From the IMG/VR virus record IMGVR_UViG_3300045988_075868: a DNA stretch of 43,788 nucleotides, one strand, 5' to 3'. Source of the DNA: a virus. Position 1 is the stretch's first letter, and each line of letters starts with the position of its first letter. Below are positions 1-43,788 of the stretch, piece by piece. The notes beneath the pieces are model-generated. The model did not search any database. It was not told the DNA's origin and worked only from the letters and a program-made list of their open reading frames with translations. A program made the translations under genes and the position numbers.

Positions 1-99
1 ATAAACAAAAAAGTGGATAAATAGTATTGACAAGCGAAACGAAATAGTGTATTATAGTATCAGAAAGGAGGTGAAACACCAGTGAGCAAACAAAAAAAG
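1..99 (+). repeat. 99-bp terminal direct repeat, identical to 43690..43788
   Basis: Base-by-base comparison of both ends shows 99/99 identity ending exactly at the window borders. This is typical of a k-mer overlap in a circular assembly. Confidence 0.95.
27..55 (+). promoter_or_regulatory. Sigma-A-type promoter (TTGACA-17-TATTAT, TG immediately upstream)
   Basis: TTGACA at 27-32, a 17-nt spacer, and TATTAT at 50-55. It is followed by AAAGGAGGTG and a GTG start at 82. A duplicate copy lies at 43716-43744. Confidence 0.6.
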
Positions 100-198
100 G
101 GCGGCAAGGCCAAGCCCGACAGCTTAGTTAACCTTACCGCCGCAATCCTAAACCTCGTCACTGCCATTCTTCTCTTGATTGAGAAGCTGACAGAATAG
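82..198 (+). CDS. Small membrane peptide (38 aa, MSKQKKGGKAKPDSLVNLTAAILNLVTAILLLIEKLTE)
   Basis: GTG start sits 9 nt after AAAGGAGGTG. The peptide has a Lys-rich N-terminus and one hydrophobic helix. A GGGGGAGG/CCTCCCCC hairpin follows the stop. It is too short for the ORF track. Confidence 0.5.
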   Translation: MSKQKKGGKAKPDSLVNLTAAILNLVTAILLLIEKLTE

Positions 199-36598: not shown

Positions 36599-37453
36599 AT
36601 GGAGACAGGCAGAACAATATCCTTGCGGGAACGAATCCGAATAAATCTTGTCACTGCAATGGAAAATGCCGGAATAAATCAAGTACAACTTGCTGACAAA
36701 TTAAACATAAGTAAAGGCACAGTCAATAATTGGACCCGTGGGAATAACTCTCCGGATGTCGATATGGTTCCAAGGATTTGTGAAGTCTTGGGAATATCTG
36801 TTTTATCTCTTTATTCACCAACAGAATTTGAAAGCCCGGAGGGGGAAACAACAAAAAAATCCCCCTCCGAACTATCGGAGGAGGCACAAAAAATCGCAAA
36901 GAGCTATGAAAAGCTGACCGACCATGGAAAAGGGGCTGTCAAGCTTATTATGGAATATGAGGGGAAGGCCGAGATCACAGCAACACCAAAGCAGCCTGTC
37001 GGCCACCCTAAAGTCATTCCCCTGCCGAAAGTAAAACGTAGCCACGGCTTTACAGAGGTTGAAGTGTTTGACGAGCCCGCCGCCGCCGGCCTTGGGAATC
37101 CGATAGAAACTCCTCCCAGTCATATGGAGCAGTATCCGTCCGACTATGTTCCCACAAAAACGAATTTTGGTGTGCTGATCTCCGGAGATTCTATGGAGCC
37201 GAAGATACCAAATGGCTCTACAGTCTTTCTCCAGGCCACTCCCGTTCTTGACAATGGTGAAATAGGTATCTTTGTTCTGGACGGGAAGTCGTACTGCAAG
37301 CAGTTGAAGAAGGACGAAGAAAGCCAGGAGGTAAAACTGCACTCCCTCAACCCGGAGTATAAGGATATTGAGATACCACCGTTTACCGAATTAAAAGTGC
37401 TGGGCCGTGTGCTGGGTGGCTACGACCCTCACACGAGGGATATCATCTGGTAA
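36599..37453 (+). CDS. CI/LexA-like repressor (XRE HTH with S24 peptidase domain)
   Basis: N-terminal INQVQLADKLNISKGTVNNWTRGNN. C-terminal GDSMEP and FVLDGKSYCKQL, giving the Ser/Lys dyad context. Confidence 0.85.
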   Translation: METGRTISLRERIRINLVTAMENAGINQVQLADKLNISKGTVNNWTRGNNSPDVDMVPRICEVLGISVLSLYSPTEFESPEGETTKKSPSELSEEAQKIAKSYEKLTDHGKGAVKLIMEYEGKAEITATPKQPVGHPKVIPLPKVKRSHGFTEVEVFDEPAAAGLGNPIETPPSHMEQYPSDYVPTKTNFGVLISGDSMEPKIPNGSTVFLQATPVLDNGEIGIFVLDGKSYCKQLKKDEESQEVKLHSLNPEYKDIEIPPFTELKVLGRVLGGYDPHTRDIIW

Positions 37454-37502: not shown

Positions 37503-37895
37503 GTGCCGGAAAATTTCAATAAGCTATTTTGCGTCGGAGAGTATGTTACAGAGTTCAATTTAGCAACCGGACAGCATCTTCCTTGTGGGCCAATTTACCA
37601 ATCTTATGGTCTAATGGCACATATTCAGAAAAGACACCCCTCCGAGGTTTCAAATCTATCTTATGTGCCGGAGATCATATCTTCTCCTGATTATATTGGA
37701 AAGCACCCTAAAGAGCCGGATAGTATTGAACTAGTGAAAATTTTGAGCGGCAACATAATGGTCTGTATAAAATTGGATAGGGATGAAAATTACCTGTTTG
37801 TTGCAAGTGTTTTCGAGATTAGTGAAGGAAAATTGAAAAACCGCATTAACAGTGGGAGATTAAAAAAGTTGACAAATCACAAAATGTGTGATTAA
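37503..37895 (+). CDS. PBECR-like (Barnase-EndoU-ColicinE5/D-RelE-like) putative nuclease
   Basis: AHIQKRHPSEV...YVPEIISSPDYIGKHPKEPDSIELVK...VASVFEIS fits my recollection of the PBECR pattern. GTG start after GAGGGGGAAAG. Low GC. Confidence 0.45.
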   Translation: MPENFNKLFCVGEYVTEFNLATGQHLPCGPIYQSYGLMAHIQKRHPSEVSNLSYVPEIISSPDYIGKHPKEPDSIELVKILSGNIMVCIKLDRDENYLFVASVFEISEGKLKNRINSGRLKKLTNHKMCD

Positions 37896-38071
37896 ATGAA
37901 GTTGCAAAAGCATAGACTGTATTGGGTGTTGAGGTCGGAAATGGCTCCCGACACTCCCTTGTATGAGGATAGAACGGGCATCTATCACCTATATGGGTAA
38001 TGCGTGAGTGCCGACACGCCGCAAGGGAACCTGAGATGTAGGATACGCCGCCCTACCAACATCCAAAACAC

Positions 38072-38216: not shown

Positions 38217-39443
38217 TCAAACCTGTTCTGTATCGCTTCTTGCGATATAGTCGTCTAATTCATTTAGATTGATTGAATAGTAATTTGTCTTTCCACGCCT
38301 CGATTTTACAAGTAGATTTTGTGGTATTTGCTCTAACTTGCGTGTCAATGTTGTGCGACTAAGCATTGCATGTTTCAGCACTACATCAGTTGATACACCA
38401 AATTCAGAGAAAAGCGCCGCTTGGATCAGAAGGCTATAGATTTCTCCCAGTTTTTCATCCTTCCCAGCGCACAGATCCTCTATTCTCTGCAAATACCTGT
38501 TTAATCGGACAAGCCCTTCCTGCAAGCTTTCCTTCAGCTTTTCCACTGATGTTTTTATTATATTTAAGAACATCGTTAGAAACGGCGTCAAATCCCCGAG
38601 GTTTACTTGGTCGTTGCATACAGTAAACGCTTTGTAGTAGTCATTGATATTTTCCTTTATTGTATATGAAAGCCGATAGCCTGTCACCGGAACTAACTCC
38701 TGCGAGAGAAGATAGCTACATATAAAGCGGCCAAGTCTTCCGTTCCCATCATAAAACGGATGGATATACTCAATCAAATAGTGAAAAATTGCAATCCTGC
38801 AAAGCGCTTCATGAGATTCGTCATGTAAAAATATAAGCGCCTTTTCCATGGATTGAATTATACTTTCTTCCGGGTATACCCCCTTATGAATCTCCTTCTG
38901 GCTCGGACTATAAATGCTCACCGACTCTTTGCGAAACCACTTCCCGTCTGGTAGGTTATCTGGATTCTCTTCTTCCACTTCTGCAAGCACCAGCTCATCG
39001 TAGATCGCCCTAATGTCCTGGCAGCTTTCAATGGGGATTTCTTCTTTTGTCATCAGCATGTCATACTTCTGAACTAATCCGAAAAAACGCTTCCCTTTGC
39101 TTTTTTCCTGCAACTCATCCAGAATATCGCTAATTTCCTTTCTGGTGCTCCGAACACCTTCTATGCTGTTAGTCAACACAATCTCATCTATGAGACATCT
39201 CCTAGAAAACTGACTAATAGCCGCACCAGGCAGTATGGAGCAGAGATTTGAAACAGCAGTGTTCATGCGCAAAATATCTGTAATCATATGGTTGATCTCC
39301 GGCGTTTGAATGAAAAATGCATTGTTTCCATTAACTTGGAAATCTAAATGTATCGCATATTCACTTTGATACCGTTTTTCATATAACGCTTTATACGCTT
39401 CCTTGTCTTTGTAATACAGCTCTGATAAATTTTGATATCCCAT
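38217..39443 (-). CDS. Fic-domain protein (AMPylase family, class II inhibitory motif) with a C-terminal winged-helix-like region
   Basis: Fic motif HPFYDGNGRLGR and N-terminal inhibitory-type motif TNSIEG. GGAGGTG lies 6 nt before the ATG. Low GC. Confidence 0.85.
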   Translation of the reverse strand: MGYQNLSELYYKDKEAYKALYEKRYQSEYAIHLDFQVNGNNAFFIQTPEINHMITDILRMNTAVSNLCSILPGAAISQFSRRCLIDEIVLTNSIEGVRSTRKEISDILDELQEKSKGKRFFGLVQKYDMLMTKEEIPIESCQDIRAIYDELVLAEVEEENPDNLPDGKWFRKESVSIYSPSQKEIHKGVYPEESIIQSMEKALIFLHDESHEALCRIAIFHYLIEYIHPFYDGNGRLGRFICSYLLSQELVPVTGYRLSYTIKENINDYYKAFTVCNDQVNLGDLTPFLTMFLNIIKTSVEKLKESLQEGLVRLNRYLQRIEDLCAGKDEKLGEIYSLLIQAALFSEFGVSTDVVLKHAMLSRTTLTRKLEQIPQNLLVKSRRGKTNYYSINLNELDDYIARSDTEQV

Positions 39444-39609: not shown

Positions 39610-39698
39610 GCTACCAACACCGAGACAGGGGAACAAAATAAAAACGCCCCCAGTGCTACCAACACCGAGGGCGGGCCGTAGATGCTACCAACATCGAC
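39610..39698 (+). repeat. Three direct copies of GCTACCAACA(C/T)CGA(G/C) upstream of int
   Basis: Copies at 39610-39624, 39655-39669 and 39684-39698. The first two are flanked by complementary C-rich and G-rich runs. A partial fourth copy CTACCAACATC lies at 38053-38063. Confidence 0.7.
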
Positions 39699-39795
39699 GG
39701 TAAGCAAAGCACCCCAAACTACTAGATCCAAGGCACCTTTGCGCCCTCATTGTATCATACATAGGTACGCTGGTGCAAGAGAAAGGAGAAAAAAC

Positions 39796-40881
39796 ATGGC
39801 CACTGCTAAACAGCTTCCCTCCGGCTCCTGGAGATGCCAAGTCTATGCTGGCACCGCACCTGACGGAAAACGTCAGTACCGTTCTTTCACTGCCTATACT
39901 AAGAAGGAAGCGGAGTATGCCGCCCTGGAGTGGCAGCTCCACTACCGGGAAATATCTAGGGACTCTTCTAATATGACCTTAGCCGAGGCGATGGAGCGAT
40001 ATCTGGCCTCTAAAGACAGTATATTGTCACCATCGACCGTCAGGGGCTATGACATCATACGCAGGAGGCACCTGCAAGGGCTCATGCAAATCCGCCTAAA
40101 TCGATTGACACCATCTATGATCCAGGAAGCATTCAATATAGAGAGCAAGCCCTATACTGATAGTCAGGGCCGAGTCCATATGCCCACCCCAAAGTCTGTA
40201 CATAATATTCATGGGTTCTTTTCTGCTGTTCTACGGGAGTATCACCCAGCTTTGCGTCTAAATATCACCCTTCCGCAAAAGGAATTGAACGAGCAGCAAT
40301 ACTTAGAGCCTGAGCAGGTAGGTAAGCTTTTACGGGCAATCAAAGGATCAGAAATGGAAGTCCCTATACTTTTGGCACTCTGGCTTAGTCTTCGATCTTC
40401 TGAAGTCACAGGTCTGACCTGGAAATATGTAGACTTTACACACAATACTATTACGGTTCGTCAAGCCAGAGTAAGGAATAAAGAAAATCAGTGGGTCGAA
40501 AAGTCTACCAAAACGACCTGCTCCACACGCACTCTCCATGCGCCTGAGTATATCATGGAACTGCTAAAGGCCAGCAAAGGCAATGATGGCCCAGAGGATC
40601 ATGTAGTCAAAATCAAAGGAAATTGTTTACTTCAAAGGCTCAAAACAATCCTGCGCAAAAATAATCTTCCTCTTATCCGCTTTCATGATCTGCGGCATAC
40701 CAATTGCAGTTTAATGAGTGCTCTTGGGGTACCAGAAAGATATATGATGGCCCGCGGTGGCTGGTCAAGTCCGCGGGTTATGCGCTCGGTGTATGACCAT
40801 ACGATGCGTAGTAAACAGAATGAGGTCGACCAAAAAATCGATAGATGTTTTTACCAGCTTATGAAAGAGGAGGACGCCTGA
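39796..40881 (+). CDS. int: Tyrosine integrase
   Basis: RFHDLRHT and GGWSSPRVMRSVYDHT (catalytic Tyr region). Start moved to ATG 39796, preceded by AAAGGAG. Confidence 0.9.
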   Translation: MATAKQLPSGSWRCQVYAGTAPDGKRQYRSFTAYTKKEAEYAALEWQLHYREISRDSSNMTLAEAMERYLASKDSILSPSTVRGYDIIRRRHLQGLMQIRLNRLTPSMIQEAFNIESKPYTDSQGRVHMPTPKSVHNIHGFFSAVLREYHPALRLNITLPQKELNEQQYLEPEQVGKLLRAIKGSEMEVPILLALWLSLRSSEVTGLTWKYVDFTHNTITVRQARVRNKENQWVEKSTKTTCSTRTLHAPEYIMELLKASKGNDGPEDHVVKIKGNCLLQRLKTILRKNNLPLIRFHDLRHTNCSLMSALGVPERYMMARGGWSSPRVMRSVYDHTMRSKQNEVDQKIDRCFYQLMKEEDA

Positions 40882-41034: not shown

Positions 41035-41107
41035 CAGGAAAAATGAAGAAACCAGGCCTTTTCAGACCTGGTTCTTCTTGGTGCGCGAGGCGGGAGTCGA
41101 ACCCGCC
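41035..41107 (-). other. attP core region: 3' end of a tRNA gene (T arm, acceptor 3' strand and CCA) with its own terminator
   Basis: Minus strand 41107->41079 reads GGCGGGTTCGACTCCCGCCTCGCGCACCA (T stem GCGGG/CCCGC, loop TTCGACT, acceptor CTCGCGC, discriminator A, CCA). It is followed by hairpin GAAGAACCAGG...CCTGGTTTCTTC and ATTTTT. No matching 5' half (GCGCGAG) lies upstream, so this is a fragment. Confidence 0.7.
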
Positions 41108-41276: not shown

Positions 41277-41651
41277 ATGCCTATAACCATGGACCCTATA
41301 CAGGAATGTAGCGATTTGCACATTGTTGTAGAGCGAACTCTACGCCGCCTCCGAATCAGCGGAAAGTTGAAAGGTTTTCGCTTCTTGAGGTATGCCCTTA
41401 CAGTAACCGTAAAAGACCCTTACCGGACTGATCTTATCACGAAAGTTCTTTACCCCGAAATAGCCGCAGAATTTAGTGATAAAGATACCAGGGTCGAGCG
41501 GGCAATCCGTACTGCGATTTGCGCCTGCTGGGACAGCTACGGCAGAGATGAACTGAATAAGATGGCGGGCTATACCTTAGAAAAGCGCCCCACAAACTTA
41601 GAGTTTATTGACTTGGTAGCAGCATATATTCGTTACATCCTGGACAGGTAA
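41277..41651 (+). CDS. Stand-alone Spo0A C-terminal (DNA-binding effector) domain protein, no receiver domain
   Basis: ITKVLYPEIAAEF..TRVERAIRTAICACWDSYG...KRPTNLEFIDLVAAYIR aligns with B. subtilis Spo0A ITKVLYPDIAKKF..SRVERAIRHAIEVAWSRGN...KPTNSEFIAMVADKLR. Confidence 0.85.
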   Translation: MPITMDPIQECSDLHIVVERTLRRLRISGKLKGFRFLRYALTVTVKDPYRTDLITKVLYPEIAAEFSDKDTRVERAIRTAICACWDSYGRDELNKMAGYTLEKRPTNLEFIDLVAAYIRYILDR

Positions 41652-41691: not shown

Positions 41692-41940
41692 TTATGCCTG
41701 CCAATGGTATCCACAGGTCTGACATACCCACATAGATTTATGTATAATTTTAGTTTTGTATTTACGAGGGGCAAAAATCTTAGCTATCAATGCAAGTACA
41801 GTAAAACAACACCATTTAACTGGAAGCCACCACCAACCAATACAAATCCACCAGAAAATGCCACGGTGTTTGGTAAGTAACTGCGTTTCCGATACCATTT
41901 GAACATTAATACTATTACTTCCACATTTTGGGCAAACCAT
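41692..41940 (-). CDS. Zinc-ribbon membrane protein (CPKCG...CQTCG flanking a Trp-rich TM hairpin)
   Basis: GGAGGAGTGAAGG precedes the ATG. The minus-strand promoter is TTGACA-18-TATTAT (reverse complement of about 41998-42027). Confidence 0.6.
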   Translation of the reverse strand: MVCPKCGSNSINVQMVSETQLLTKHRGIFWWICIGWWWLPVKWCCFTVLALIAKIFAPRKYKTKIIHKSMWVCQTCGYHWQA

Positions 41941-42060
41941 CCTTCACTCCTCCAAAACACACATAATTCATAATATTTAGTCATCTTTGGCATAATAATA
42001 GCATAAAAAGTGTGTTAGTGTCAATCCCGAAATAGTCACTTTTGGGATAGGATTGATAGT

Positions 42061-42318
42061 ATGCGATTGTTAACATGGAATGGAAAGTGCAACTGTTGTG
42101 GTGAAAGGGTCCGCCTTGCTCGGGAAAAGGCGGGATTATCACAAGAGAAACTGGCCGCTATAATCCAGCTTAATGGGCATGGTCTTACACAGAAGGCAAT
42201 CAGCCGAATTGAAACAGGGGAGCGCATCGTTCCCGATTTTGAGATTCCGCTTCTCGCAACTGCGTTGAATGTAGATCCACTATGGTTGTTAGGTATAACA
42301 GAATGTAATAGAGAGTAG
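42061..42318 (+). CDS. XRE-family HTH regulator
   Basis: GERVRLAREKAGLSQEKLAAII...TQKAISRIETGER. A hairpin follows at about 42322-42350. The start and promoter are unclear. Confidence 0.65.
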   Translation: MRLLTWNGKCNCCGERVRLAREKAGLSQEKLAAIIQLNGHGLTQKAISRIETGERIVPDFEIPLLATALNVDPLWLLGITECNRE

Positions 42319-42429
42319 AGAAAGGCCAGGGATCACGCCTTGGCCTCATTGGTAAATATCGATCATAATTGAAGGAAACGGGGCTGTCAGGGCTCCTTCA
42401 AAAATTTTATATAGAACATTCGTTTGTTA

Positions 42430-42458
42430 TTGTCAATCCTCACATTCGCTGATATAAT
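42430..42458 (+). promoter_or_regulatory. Promoter (TTGTCA-17-TATAAT) for the Panacea operon
   Basis: Canonical spacing, followed by GAAAGGAGGG and ATG 42485. Confidence 0.6.
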
Positions 42459-42484
42459 ATATTATAGAAAGGAGGGTCTAGAGC

Positions 42485-42955
42485 ATGCCAATGTCAGCGA
42501 CCGTTGTTTGCAACAATATTTTGAAGCGCGCATTTTCAGAAAGTGTTGCTGTTTCTCCCATGAAATTACAGAAATTACTGTATTTTGTAAGCTGTGAATA
42601 TGTCAAGGCTACTGGTAACGATCTTTTTTCGGAAGATTTTGGCGTGTGGCAGTATGGCCCCGTTCTCCCTACCGTATATGATGAGTTTAAATCCTTTAAG
42701 AGCACTCCCATCAATAAATATTCTACAGATGCAAACGGTATAGCGTATGCCATTGATGAAGATAGTGCTCCAAATCTAAAAACTGCTATTGTTCGAATTT
42801 GGAACAGTTTCAAGTTTTTTGACGGAGTGACATTATCAAAAATTACACACAAAGATGGCTCTGGCTGGTCAAACGCATTTTGCCAACATCGCTCCAAAAT
42901 TACAACTGAGGATATGAGGTCGGATAATACATATGGGGAATATCTGCTCACCTAA
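42485..42955 (+). CDS. Panacea-domain (DUF4065, SocA/GepA-like) antitoxin-type protein
   Basis: SPMKLQKLLYFVSCEYVKATGNDLFSEDFGVWQYGPVLPTVYDEFK matches the DUF4065 core (LQKLLYy...g.pLf.e.feAW.yGPV.p.vY). Confidence 0.75.
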   Translation: MPMSATVVCNNILKRAFSESVAVSPMKLQKLLYFVSCEYVKATGNDLFSEDFGVWQYGPVLPTVYDEFKSFKSTPINKYSTDANGIAYAIDEDSAPNLKTAIVRIWNSFKFFDGVTLSKITHKDGSGWSNAFCQHRSKITTEDMRSDNTYGEYLLT

Positions 42956-43271
42956 TACAAATAAAAAGCCAGAAATTATCTCAGAAATTGATGCGCCTTT
43001 TCCTCCGGTCAATCAACCTCTGCAAACATCTGAAGATGTTCCGAACTTAATTAAACTCAAAAATCAACAACACAGTCATGCAGTCGAAGACCTGAAAAAT
43101 ACCGTTGGGAAAAAATTGCTATATGGGTGTCTAATTGCAATCGCGGTCTTTGCTCTTATTGACGCAAAGTTCCATGTTGATTCCCCGATGTTTACCAGTG
43201 CATTTGAAGTCGCAAAAATTGTTGCAACTACTGTTCTCGGATATCTATTTGGTAGTAAAACAAAATCTTGA
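42933..43271 (+). CDS. Small protein with two TM helices; candidate toxin partner of the Panacea protein
   Basis: Overlaps the upstream gene by 23 nt. Hydrophilic N-terminal 60 aa, then LLYGCLIAIAVFALI and AKIVATTVLGYLFG. No family recognised. Confidence 0.55.
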   Translation: MGNICSPNTNKKPEIISEIDAPFPPVNQPLQTSEDVPNLIKLKNQQHSHAVEDLKNTVGKKLLYGCLIAIAVFALIDAKFHVDSPMFTSAFEVAKIVATTVLGYLFGSKTKS

Positions 43272-43278
43272 CATAGAT

Positions 43279-43316
43279 AACTCCCACCACCCGTCCCGGT
43301 AGTGGGAGTTGTTTTT
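43279..43316. terminator. Intrinsic terminator (AACTCCCAC...GTGGGAGTT followed by GTTTTT)
   Basis: 9-bp outer stem with an inner CCG/CGG pairing and a T5 tract on the plus strand. Confidence 0.7.
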
Positions 43317-43339
43317 GTCGCCAAAATCGAAAATATAGA

Positions 43340-43368
43340 CGGTTCATCCCCACGCATGTGGGGTTTAC
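43340..43368 (-). CRISPR. Solitary type I-E-like CRISPR repeat unit (no array)
   Basis: The minus strand reads GTAAACCCCACATGCGTGGGGATGAACCG. It has 29 nt in a 5+6+4+6+8 layout, identical to that of the E. coli I-E repeat GAGTTCCCCGCGCCAGCGGGGATAAACCG. The 3' handle is ATGAACCG versus ATAAACCG. Only one copy is present. Confidence 0.6.
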
Positions 43369-43401
43369 GTCTCTGCGTGGGCTAGGTGTTAATATACACC
43401 A

Positions 43402-43620
43402 TTAAATCACCTCTCCAGTGTCATTCATAGTGAATGAGGCGGTATAAGTGCAGTTTAATGCTTCCGCTATTGCCCGTAAATCTTTTTCAGTAAAATTGTC
43501 ACGGCTTACCTTATTGGATAAGTTTTGTCGGGATTGTCCAGTTTTTTCCGCCAATTCTCCCAATGTCATATTCCTACGTCCAAGGACTACTTTAATCTTT
43601 TCCCCCATACTTAATGTCAT
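43402..43620 (-). CDS. XRE-family HTH protein (Aca-like position upstream of the solitary repeat)
   Basis: NMTLGELAEKTGQSRQNLSNKVSRDN. AAAGGAGG lies 8 nt before the ATG. Confidence 0.75.
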   Translation of the reverse strand: MTLSMGEKIKVVLGRRNMTLGELAEKTGQSRQNLSNKVSRDNFTEKDLRAIAEALNCTYTASFTMNDTGEVI

Positions 43621-43646
43621 ATTTGATTCCTCCTTTTTATAAGCTT

Positions 43647-43675
43647 ATTATACACTATAAAATGTAAATCGTCAA
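43647..43675 (-). promoter_or_regulatory. Promoter (TTGACG-17-TATAAT, TG-extended) for the HTH gene and solitary repeat transcript
   Basis: Reverse complement of 43670-43675 is TTGACG and of 43647-43652 is TATAAT. Confidence 0.6.
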
Positions 43676-43689
43676 TATTAAATATAAAA

Positions 43690-43788
43690 ATAAACAAAAA
43701 AGTGGATAAATAGTATTGACAAGCGAAACGAAATAGTGTATTATAGTATCAGAAAGGAGGTGAAACACCAGTGAGCAAACAAAAAAAG
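43690..43788 (+). repeat. 99-bp terminal direct repeat, identical to 1..99
   Basis: See 1..99. It contains the duplicate promoter and the first 6 codons of the 82..198 gene. Confidence 0.95.

Follow-up and report, generated by a model that had tools for sequence, protein, structure and literature searches.

Clustered regularly interspaced short palindromic repeat (CRISPR) units carried singly by viruses, or solitary repeat units (SRUs), have been put forward as candidate RNA anti-CRISPRs (Racrs) by Camara-Wilpert et al. (2023, Nature; PMC10651486). According to that paper, RacrIF1 sequesters Cas6f and Cas7f, and nine of nine tested Racr candidates inhibit CRISPR; the legend to its Fig. 3g places type I-E candidates among those tested. 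It also describes acrIC5-RacrIC1 from a Bifidobacterium pseudocatenulatum prophage, a functional bicistron of an open reading frame (ORF) and a Racr. Phage Cracr arrays and viral mini-arrays, including type I-E examples, are reported in a preprint (bioRxiv 10.1101/2024.10.29.618823). The element considered here is a single type I-E repeat in the virus record IMGVR_UViG_3300045988_075868, a stretch of 43,788 nt hereafter called the window, where it lies in sense orientation behind a small helix-turn-helix (HTH) gene. The account that we favour, and to which we give about an even chance of being correct, is that the repeat acts as a Racr, serving as a decoy for Cas6e or Cascade.

The element is already a catalogued member of this known class, and the locus itself is in the published SRU list, although it is not one of the nine candidates tested. 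The SRUFinder row in supplementary file 3 of PMC10651486 reads 'IMG/VR3 DTR_828823_43340_43368 DTR_828823 43340 43368 CGGTTCATCCCCACGCATGTGGGGTTTAC I-E I-E:73358 100 100'. The two final figures give 100% identity and 100% coverage relative to the catalogued repeat I-E:73358. Since the sequence, strand and coordinates in this row equal those of the window, DTR_828823 is almost certainly the same contig. Hence the Racr candidate reading, which a first-pass annotation of the window had reached independently of any database, was already in print for the same coordinates. The 29-mer occurs at least 11 times in the same supplement.

A solitary type I-E repeat on a phage genome

Read on the minus strand from 43368 to 43340, the element is the 29 nt sequence GTAAACCCCACATGCGTGGGGATGAACCG, composed of a 5-nt flank, the stem arm CCCCAC, the loop ATGC, the second arm GTGGGG and the 8-nt handle ATGAACCG; the 5/6/4/6/8 partition by which it had originally been recognised as having type I-E geometry is correct. 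So is the statement that only one copy is present: the 29-mer is single-copy in the 43.8-kb window at up to three mismatches, and a looser scan for a degenerate stem-plus-handle pattern returned the same site only within the window. Matches to the 29-mer were absent from 100 dinucleotide-preserving shuffles. The repeat hairpin is present in both the minimum free energy (MFE) and the centroid folds of a 151-nt transcript segment (z = -4.8), neither of which uses the alternative pairing with an upstream CCCACGCA that had been suggested for it. Given the established biochemistry of the Escherichia coli enzyme, Cas6e would be predicted to cut between 43348 and 43347, after the last G of the stem.

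A search of Rfam returned neither CRISPR-DR nor any other family over the repeat region, even at E <= 10, giving chance matches only. When eight type I-E Cas proteins were used as tblastn queries against the window, nothing was found below E = 0.05, hence no cas homologues were identified. Since the repeat matches those of real arrays at 29/29 positions and the window has no cas homologue, we are close to certain that this is a genuine type I-E repeat, solitary and carried by a phage.

CRISPR arrays carrying the same repeat

In a scan of one genome per species, the full 29-mer had one match, in Butyricicoccus pullicaecorum DSM 23266, where it stands first in a small array directly past the Cas6e gene (PF08798, 2.3e-38). 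Ten further loci of the B. pullicaecorum type are complete, with the order cas3-cse1-cse2-cas7-cas5-cas6e, an array of 12-30 repeats, then cas1-cas2; across these ten, the exact 29-mer is the dominant repeat, accounting for 143 of about 220 units. The 22-nt core was found by the scan at no fewer than 120 loci (at least that many being recorded), most of them arrays with a 61-nt period and spread over many phyla, and the 24 nt of stem-loop and handle are common to type I-E arrays of many phyla among the matches listed. Other type I-E repeats from gut Oscillospiraceae differ from the phage 29-mer by 1-4 nt: an Oscillospiraceae array (L222) has the repeat GTAAACCCCACATGCGTGGGGATGGACCG, a 28/29 match, and further close variants read GTAA(A/G)CCCCACGTGCGTGGGGATGAACCG and GTAAACCCCACGCACGTGGGGATGGACCG.

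These loci have features of their own. In B. pullicaecorum, a Lawsonibacter-like lineage and one more gut Oscillospirales lineage, the array lies between cas6e and cas1 rather than after cas2, starting around 90 nt past cas6e and reaching the start of cas1 (L212-L219, L226-L235 and L240-L249), with between 2 and 54 repeats depending on the strain. Type I-E loci of the Pseudoflavonifractor type (L220, 10623-10790; L223, 5408-5620) are without cas1-cas2, and have only 2-4 mutually divergent repeat-like units immediately past cas6e, followed by a serine recombinase; what is seen here is either an array in decay or a set of regulatory units resembling crRNAs.

The repeat is encoded behind a phage repressor gene

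On the same strand as the repeat is a sigma-70-type promoter, TTGACG-17-TATAAT (43647-43675, minus strand), that matched 11 of 12 consensus positions in a promoter scan; the first-pass annotation was accurate in calling it near-consensus and in placing the repeat in sense orientation to it. The context of its -10 box, TAGTGTATAAT, is conserved ahead of homologues of the HTH gene in other phages. This gene (43402-43620, minus strand; stop codon TAA at 43404-43402) encodes a 72-aa XRE/Cro-type protein with matches to Pfam HTH_26 (2.6e-09) and HTH_3, and belongs to PHROG 'transcriptional repressor' families, which are generic phage repressors. From stop codon to repeat is a linker (43369-43401, minus strand) of exactly 33 nt, the distance previously given, containing a small GGUGU/ACACC hairpin and a AGCCCACGCAGAGAC segment. 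The -10 box ends 279 nt ahead of the repeat, with the HTH ORF in between. As there is no terminator between the HTH gene and the repeat, the two are probably co-transcribed: the promoter is likely to drive the HTH gene from its predicted transcription start and, through read-through, the repeat.

The exact HTH protein is indexed in 108 blocks of an assembly collection, and all nine of the further contigs that were read with this protein have the identical repeat. Homologues with 39-78% identity were found in nine other viral contigs, representing six distinct downstream sequences; these keep the divergent promoter and then run straight into their own hairpin-plus-T terminators, with no repeat behind them at up to six mismatches. 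As the homologues end in plain terminators lacking the repeat, the repeat appears to have been added behind a pre-existing regulator.

An alternative function for such an arrangement would be in cis, with Cas6e cleavage and binding defining and stabilising the 3' end of the HTH mRNA and so coupling the repressor to host Cascade. The repeat belongs to the transcription unit of the HTH gene, 33 nt past its stop codon, with no dedicated terminator on that strand, and PMC10651486 reports the RacrIF1 RNA upstream of the cut to be the species retained with Cas6f and Cas7f. However, this idea is conjectural throughout, and the HTH homologues manage with ordinary terminators; we consider it very improbable.

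The HTH protein had also been proposed as an anti-CRISPR-associated (Aca)-like regulator. It shares with Aca proteins the trait of an HTH gene in the same operon, being on the same strand and 33 nt upstream with no intervening terminator. The nine homologous loci do not show this HTH family to be recurrently linked to anti-CRISPR elements, and the divergent promoter region yielded no palindromic operator. The sole inverted repeat there is a 9-nt pair, ATACACTAT/ATAGTGTAT, which coincides with the -10 regions of both divergent promoters. Hence the proposal loses its footing, the protein coming from a generic repressor family whose other members lack the repeat; an Aca-type role is possible, without specific support. 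On the other side of this region, divergent from the HTH gene, is a gene for a 38-aa lysine-rich and hydrophobic peptide (82-198, plus strand), with the promoter TTGACA-17-TATTAT, which is also called in sibling contigs.

The sequence downstream of the repeat is exchangeable

Following the repeat are a 31-nt A/U-rich tail (43309-43339, minus strand) and, starting 31 nt past the repeat, a 13-bp GC-rich hairpin (43281-43308). The hairpin had been taken for a terminator downstream of the repeat. It is indeed there, although its T-run is on the plus strand (TTGTTTTTGT), directly past the stop codon of a convergent gene (42933-43271); a terminator scan called it on the plus strand only, as the terminator of the operon at 42485-43271. 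On the repeat's strand the hairpin is followed by UUAUCUAUGU (TTATCTATGT as minus-strand continuation), such that it would be at best a weak terminator in this direction, possibly a weak bidirectional stop. The convergent operon (42485-43271, plus strand) consists of a gene with a SocA/Panacea domain (Pfam SocA_Panacea, 3.2e-17) overlapping one for a 112-aa membrane protein, likely a PanA-type antitoxin/toxin pair. A comparison with Flavonifractor phage Chenonceau was uninformative as to conservation of the hairpin, since the SocA cassette of that phage has a different terminator.

The boundaries of the unit are delineated by a metagenome contig, L188, which retains the HTH gene, linker and repeat at 99% identity and in which positions 41694-43339 of the window are replaced by 427 bp that code for a ribbon-helix-helix (RHH) protein and contain a truncated gene of the RHH type as well. 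The exchange sets in exactly where the repeat ends on its 3' side, no second repeat lies beyond this breakpoint, and the SocA/Panacea cassette is exchanged together with the tail and hairpin; the tail, being replaced from 43339 onward, is therefore outside the conserved unit. The stretch of L188 that corresponds to window positions 43340-43401 is at 2430-2580 on its minus strand; there, a second copy of the last 15 nt of the linker (AGCCCACGCAGAGGC), with 13/15 identity, is found 19 nt past the repeat. This second copy is within the truncated RHH reading frame, and both copies read AHAET in frame. The direct repeat and the breakpoint point to a history of recombination around the repeat.

It is conceivable on this evidence that the repeat is itself a recombination handle, providing a short homology or boundary for swapping phage cassettes or for recombining with host arrays. 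The L188 breakpoint, which coincides precisely with the 3' edge of the repeat, would fit this, and integration into arrays is an earlier speculation on SRUs quoted in PMC10651486. Nevertheless, there is one such breakpoint only, and the phage has its own tyrosine integrase and a tRNA-like att core, with a junction, at 41079, outside any CRISPR array; a role of this kind is hence highly improbable.

The same exchange bears on whether the element is a crRNA-like guide, as in a mini-array or Cracr, in which Cas6e would cut the repeat, and the handle, the downstream 31-32 nt and the hairpin would be loaded into Cascade so as to target a competing phage or to silence a cas or toxin promoter of the host. 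An intact handle (ATGAACCG) is present, the length of the tail fits the 32-33-nt spacers of type I-E systems, the CCCAC/GUGGG base of the hairpin resembles the stem of the repeat, and Cracr arrays of phages acting against type I-E have been documented (bioRxiv 10.1101/2024.10.29.618823). Other gut phage contigs also carry units in which a promoter, a repeat, a 32/34-nt segment and a degenerate repeat follow one another. Set against this, in L188 the tail and hairpin are replaced right at the end of the repeat, where there is no second repeat, and the hairpin is the terminator of the plus-strand gene. Seed-plus-protospacer adjacent motif (PAM) matches to the tail were at the level of chance across 630 kb, made up of the phage itself, the host flanks and 34 type I-E loci, and none of the seed matches lay upstream of cas3 or cse1, including the cas3-cse1 stretch of B. 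pullicaecorum, in a set of loci that did not contain the cas locus of the prophage's own host. Seed-plus-PAM matches were likewise at chance level only for the tail of L188, for the 33-nt linker and for segments resembling spacers in two mini-arrays of other phages.

A scan of viral sequences for a protospacer, in which every sixth base of the tail was allowed to vary, returned one partial match of 21/23 in two Human Microbiome Project (HMP) contigs, which has a TTC 5' flank and then diverges; it is unrelated and was judged to be due to chance. It covers the first 23 nt of the tail, differing at positions 6 and 12 (L236, 3345-3367; L237, 2450-2472). The linker was also considered as a former spacer, for which the viral scan returned the same phage only.

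As the tail is exchanged in L188, there is no second repeat and the targets are at chance level, the guide or Cracr reading is unsupported at this locus, and of the accounts considered it is the one that we think least probable. For the same reasons the tail does not stand up as the spacer that it was originally thought to resemble; nor does the hairpin as a degenerate repeat, since it shares only CCCAC/GTGGG with the repeat and serves as a plus-strand terminator.

The other phage contigs with such units are three from IMGVR 3300045988 (L046, L049 and L056) and two more (L018 and L033), and have TTGACA-17-TATAAT directly ahead of the type I-E repeat CAGAACCCCACAGCGGTGGGGATGAACCG, which is followed by a 32-nt segment with the palindrome GGATAAGCGCTTATCC (32/34 nt across units) and then a second repeat in degenerate form. 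They have the look of mini-arrays with one spacer, or of units of the Cracr type, and no targets of their segments were found in the type I-E loci scanned.

The phage genome and its host

Bases 1-99 of the window are identical to 43690-43788, and the contig with this 99-bp terminal direct repeat therefore represents a circular genome of 43,689 bp. The phage, which is from the human gut, is temperate, encoding a tyrosine integrase (39682-40881), a CI/S24 repressor (36599-37453) and an endolysin; other genes include those for Fic, PBECR3 and Spo0A_C-domain proteins as well as the SocA/Panacea and membrane-protein pair. Looked up as an exact protein, the integrase gave no record. Integrated copies were found through look-ups of the exact Spo0A_C protein. 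These place the phage-host junction at window position 41079, which has a core resembling the 3' end of a tRNA and adjoins host genes encoding VWA, endonuclease, PpiC and PBP proteins. Residue for residue, the host flank proteins are those of Flintibacter hominis / Muriventricola aceti (Oscillospiraceae). From the position of the junction, the repeat is approximately 2.3 kb inside the left end of the prophage, in a variable accessory region.

Several other features of the genome were observed. The Spo0A C-terminal DNA-binding domain protein (41277-41651, plus strand; PF08769, 2.4e-29) is a stand-alone domain adjoining attP; the exact protein has entries in 1,517 blocks of the assembly collection and is thus very common among gut metagenomes. 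The lysogeny region contains a skipping-rope RNA (37924-38064, plus strand; Rfam RF02924, 65.6 bits, gathering score 36.7) between the PBECR3 nuclease-domain gene (37503-37895) and the Fic gene (38217-39443). A tRNA-Arg(CCG) gene is located mid-genome (21819-21894, minus strand).

The repeat as a candidate decoy

From the sequence identity, orientation, promoter match and fold of the element, we infer how it would be transcribed, processed and made inhibitory as a Racr. Transcription from the promoter at 43675-43647 would cover the HTH gene and read through the repeat, which is predicted by folding to form a CCCCAC/GUGGGG hairpin. By analogy with RacrIF1 and the tested type I-E Racrs, host Cas6e would bind the hairpin, cut it between 43348 and 43347 and stay bound. 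Cas6e, and possibly Cas7 and Cas5, would then be titrated off genuine crRNAs, resulting in less functional Cascade. The HTH protein would be a pre-existing phage repressor, the gene of which lends its promoter to the repeat. Consistent with a decoy function are the persistence of an intact HTH-repeat unit in L188, despite exchange of the downstream 1.6 kb, and the passing of the element through the published SRUFinder filter as a type I-E SRU.

A number of observations weigh against the decoy. Every copy of the repeat found is in a context of around 99% identity, and with all copies so nearly identical in their surroundings, conservation therefore says little about selection. At approximately 270 nt, the distance between the predicted start and the repeat exceeds the 250-bp promoter criterion given in PMC10651486, and the repeat is located in the 3' untranslated region (UTR) of an mRNA; no recognisable acr gene is near it. 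Sibling prophages at the same att site (L205, L207, L210 and L211) are without the whole HTH-repeat cassette. The perfect match to the repeat is in Butyricicoccus, which is of a different family from the prophage host, Flintibacter/Muriventricola. The first-pass annotation had proposed looking for a host type I-E array with the same or nearly the same repeat; the arrays of B. pullicaecorum match at 29/29 identity, whilst searches with Cas6e and Cas7, of cluster names and of the literature tied no type I-E locus to Flintibacter/Muriventricola, which is an absence of evidence. The loci that were found belong to B. pullicaecorum, a Pseudoflavonifractor sp., a Dysosmobacter sp. and the Lawsonibacter-like lineage, and the paper in the International Journal of Systematic and Evolutionary Microbiology does not mention CRISPR. 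Finally, requiring a match of at least 24 nt, the phage is unmatched by around 300 distinct spacers (81 + 134 + 86) from the three closest type I-E lineages, and likewise by 2,883 spacers of more distant arrays (2,830 from the repeat scan and 53 from metagenome arrays).

These points give some weight to a neutral origin, in which the repeat was recently acquired through illegitimate or repeat-mediated recombination with an array or mobile element and is hitch-hiking, functionless, behind the HTH gene. This is a serious rival, albeit one that we consider unlikely. The near-identical context of all copies affords no evolutionary test of constraint; HTH homologues exist without the repeat, as do close prophages without the cassette; the matching repeat comes from a family other than that of the host; and there are footprints of recombination in the form of the truncated RHH gene, the 13/15-nt flanking direct repeat and the L188 breakpoint at the edge of the repeat. 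Weighing against a functionless remnant are the perfect 29/29 copy, its sense orientation to a strong promoter and its folding as a repeat hairpin, as well as its being intact through a cassette swap and carried behind an HTH protein found in 108 assembly blocks. The high experimental success rate of the Racr class, as published, also counts against it.

A more elaborate version of the decoy would make the HTH gene and repeat a self-regulated anti-CRISPR unit, in which the repressor doses the RNA in the manner of an Aca, cleavage by Cas6e both generates the 3' end of the repressor mRNA and shields it, and gene regulation in the phage thereby senses the presence of host Cascade proteins. On that reading, a repeat perfectly matching Butyricicoccus in a Flintibacter prophage would imply either a decoy effective across bacterial families or the mark of a horizontal spread of one type I-E system. 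We think this improbable.

Comparison with known systems

The original observation is real and its core interpretation reasonable, whilst the Aca partner, the spacer tail and the degenerate repeat fail on checking. As a discovery the locus adds little, given that its class, subtype and position are all in the published SRU catalogue. What is added here is the source of the cognate repeat, in the form of the B. pullicaecorum type I-E consensus, and the prophage host, Flintibacter/Muriventricola, together with grounds for regarding as incidental the HTH partner, the 'degenerate repeat' and the tail once taken for a 'spacer'. Should the decoy reading be true, the element would be a natural RNA anti-CRISPR of type I-E from gut Clostridia, strict anaerobes for which tractable phage-host models are few, and an example of a repeat decoy carried on a repressor mRNA.

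With the type I-E repeat of B. pullicaecorum, the phage copy shares 29/29 identity, the same hairpin and the 8-nt handle; it differs in being solitary, with no flanking spacers, and in residing in a prophage of another family, the Oscillospiraceae. Aca repressors resemble the protein encoded here in being small HTH proteins within the transcription unit of a putative anti-CRISPR that has a strong promoter. However, the HTH gene in this phage is upstream of the repeat rather than downstream, its family has no specific link to repeats, and no operator was identified. Cracr arrays and mini-arrays are similar in that a repeat-derived phage RNA would engage host Cas proteins, but this locus is without the second repeat-like unit that defines them, and in the sequences scanned its tail had neither nine or more PAM-proximal positions matching the promoter of cas genes or creT nor a full protospacer in a rival element.

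The acrIC5-RacrIC1 bicistron is of subtype I-C and includes a validated Acr ORF, whereas the ORF in this phage encodes a generic HTH repressor with homologues lacking the repeat; in both cases, an ORF is followed within tens of nucleotides by an SRU on what is, for the phage studied here, probably a single RNA. From the viral SRUs described as Racrs, the element differs in its location: it is within the 3' UTR of the mRNA for a repressor, with approximately 270 nt separating it from the predicted start, rather than right after the promoter. Like them, it is a single repeat mimic, here of subtype I-E, borne by a phage without cas genes and in sense orientation behind a promoter.

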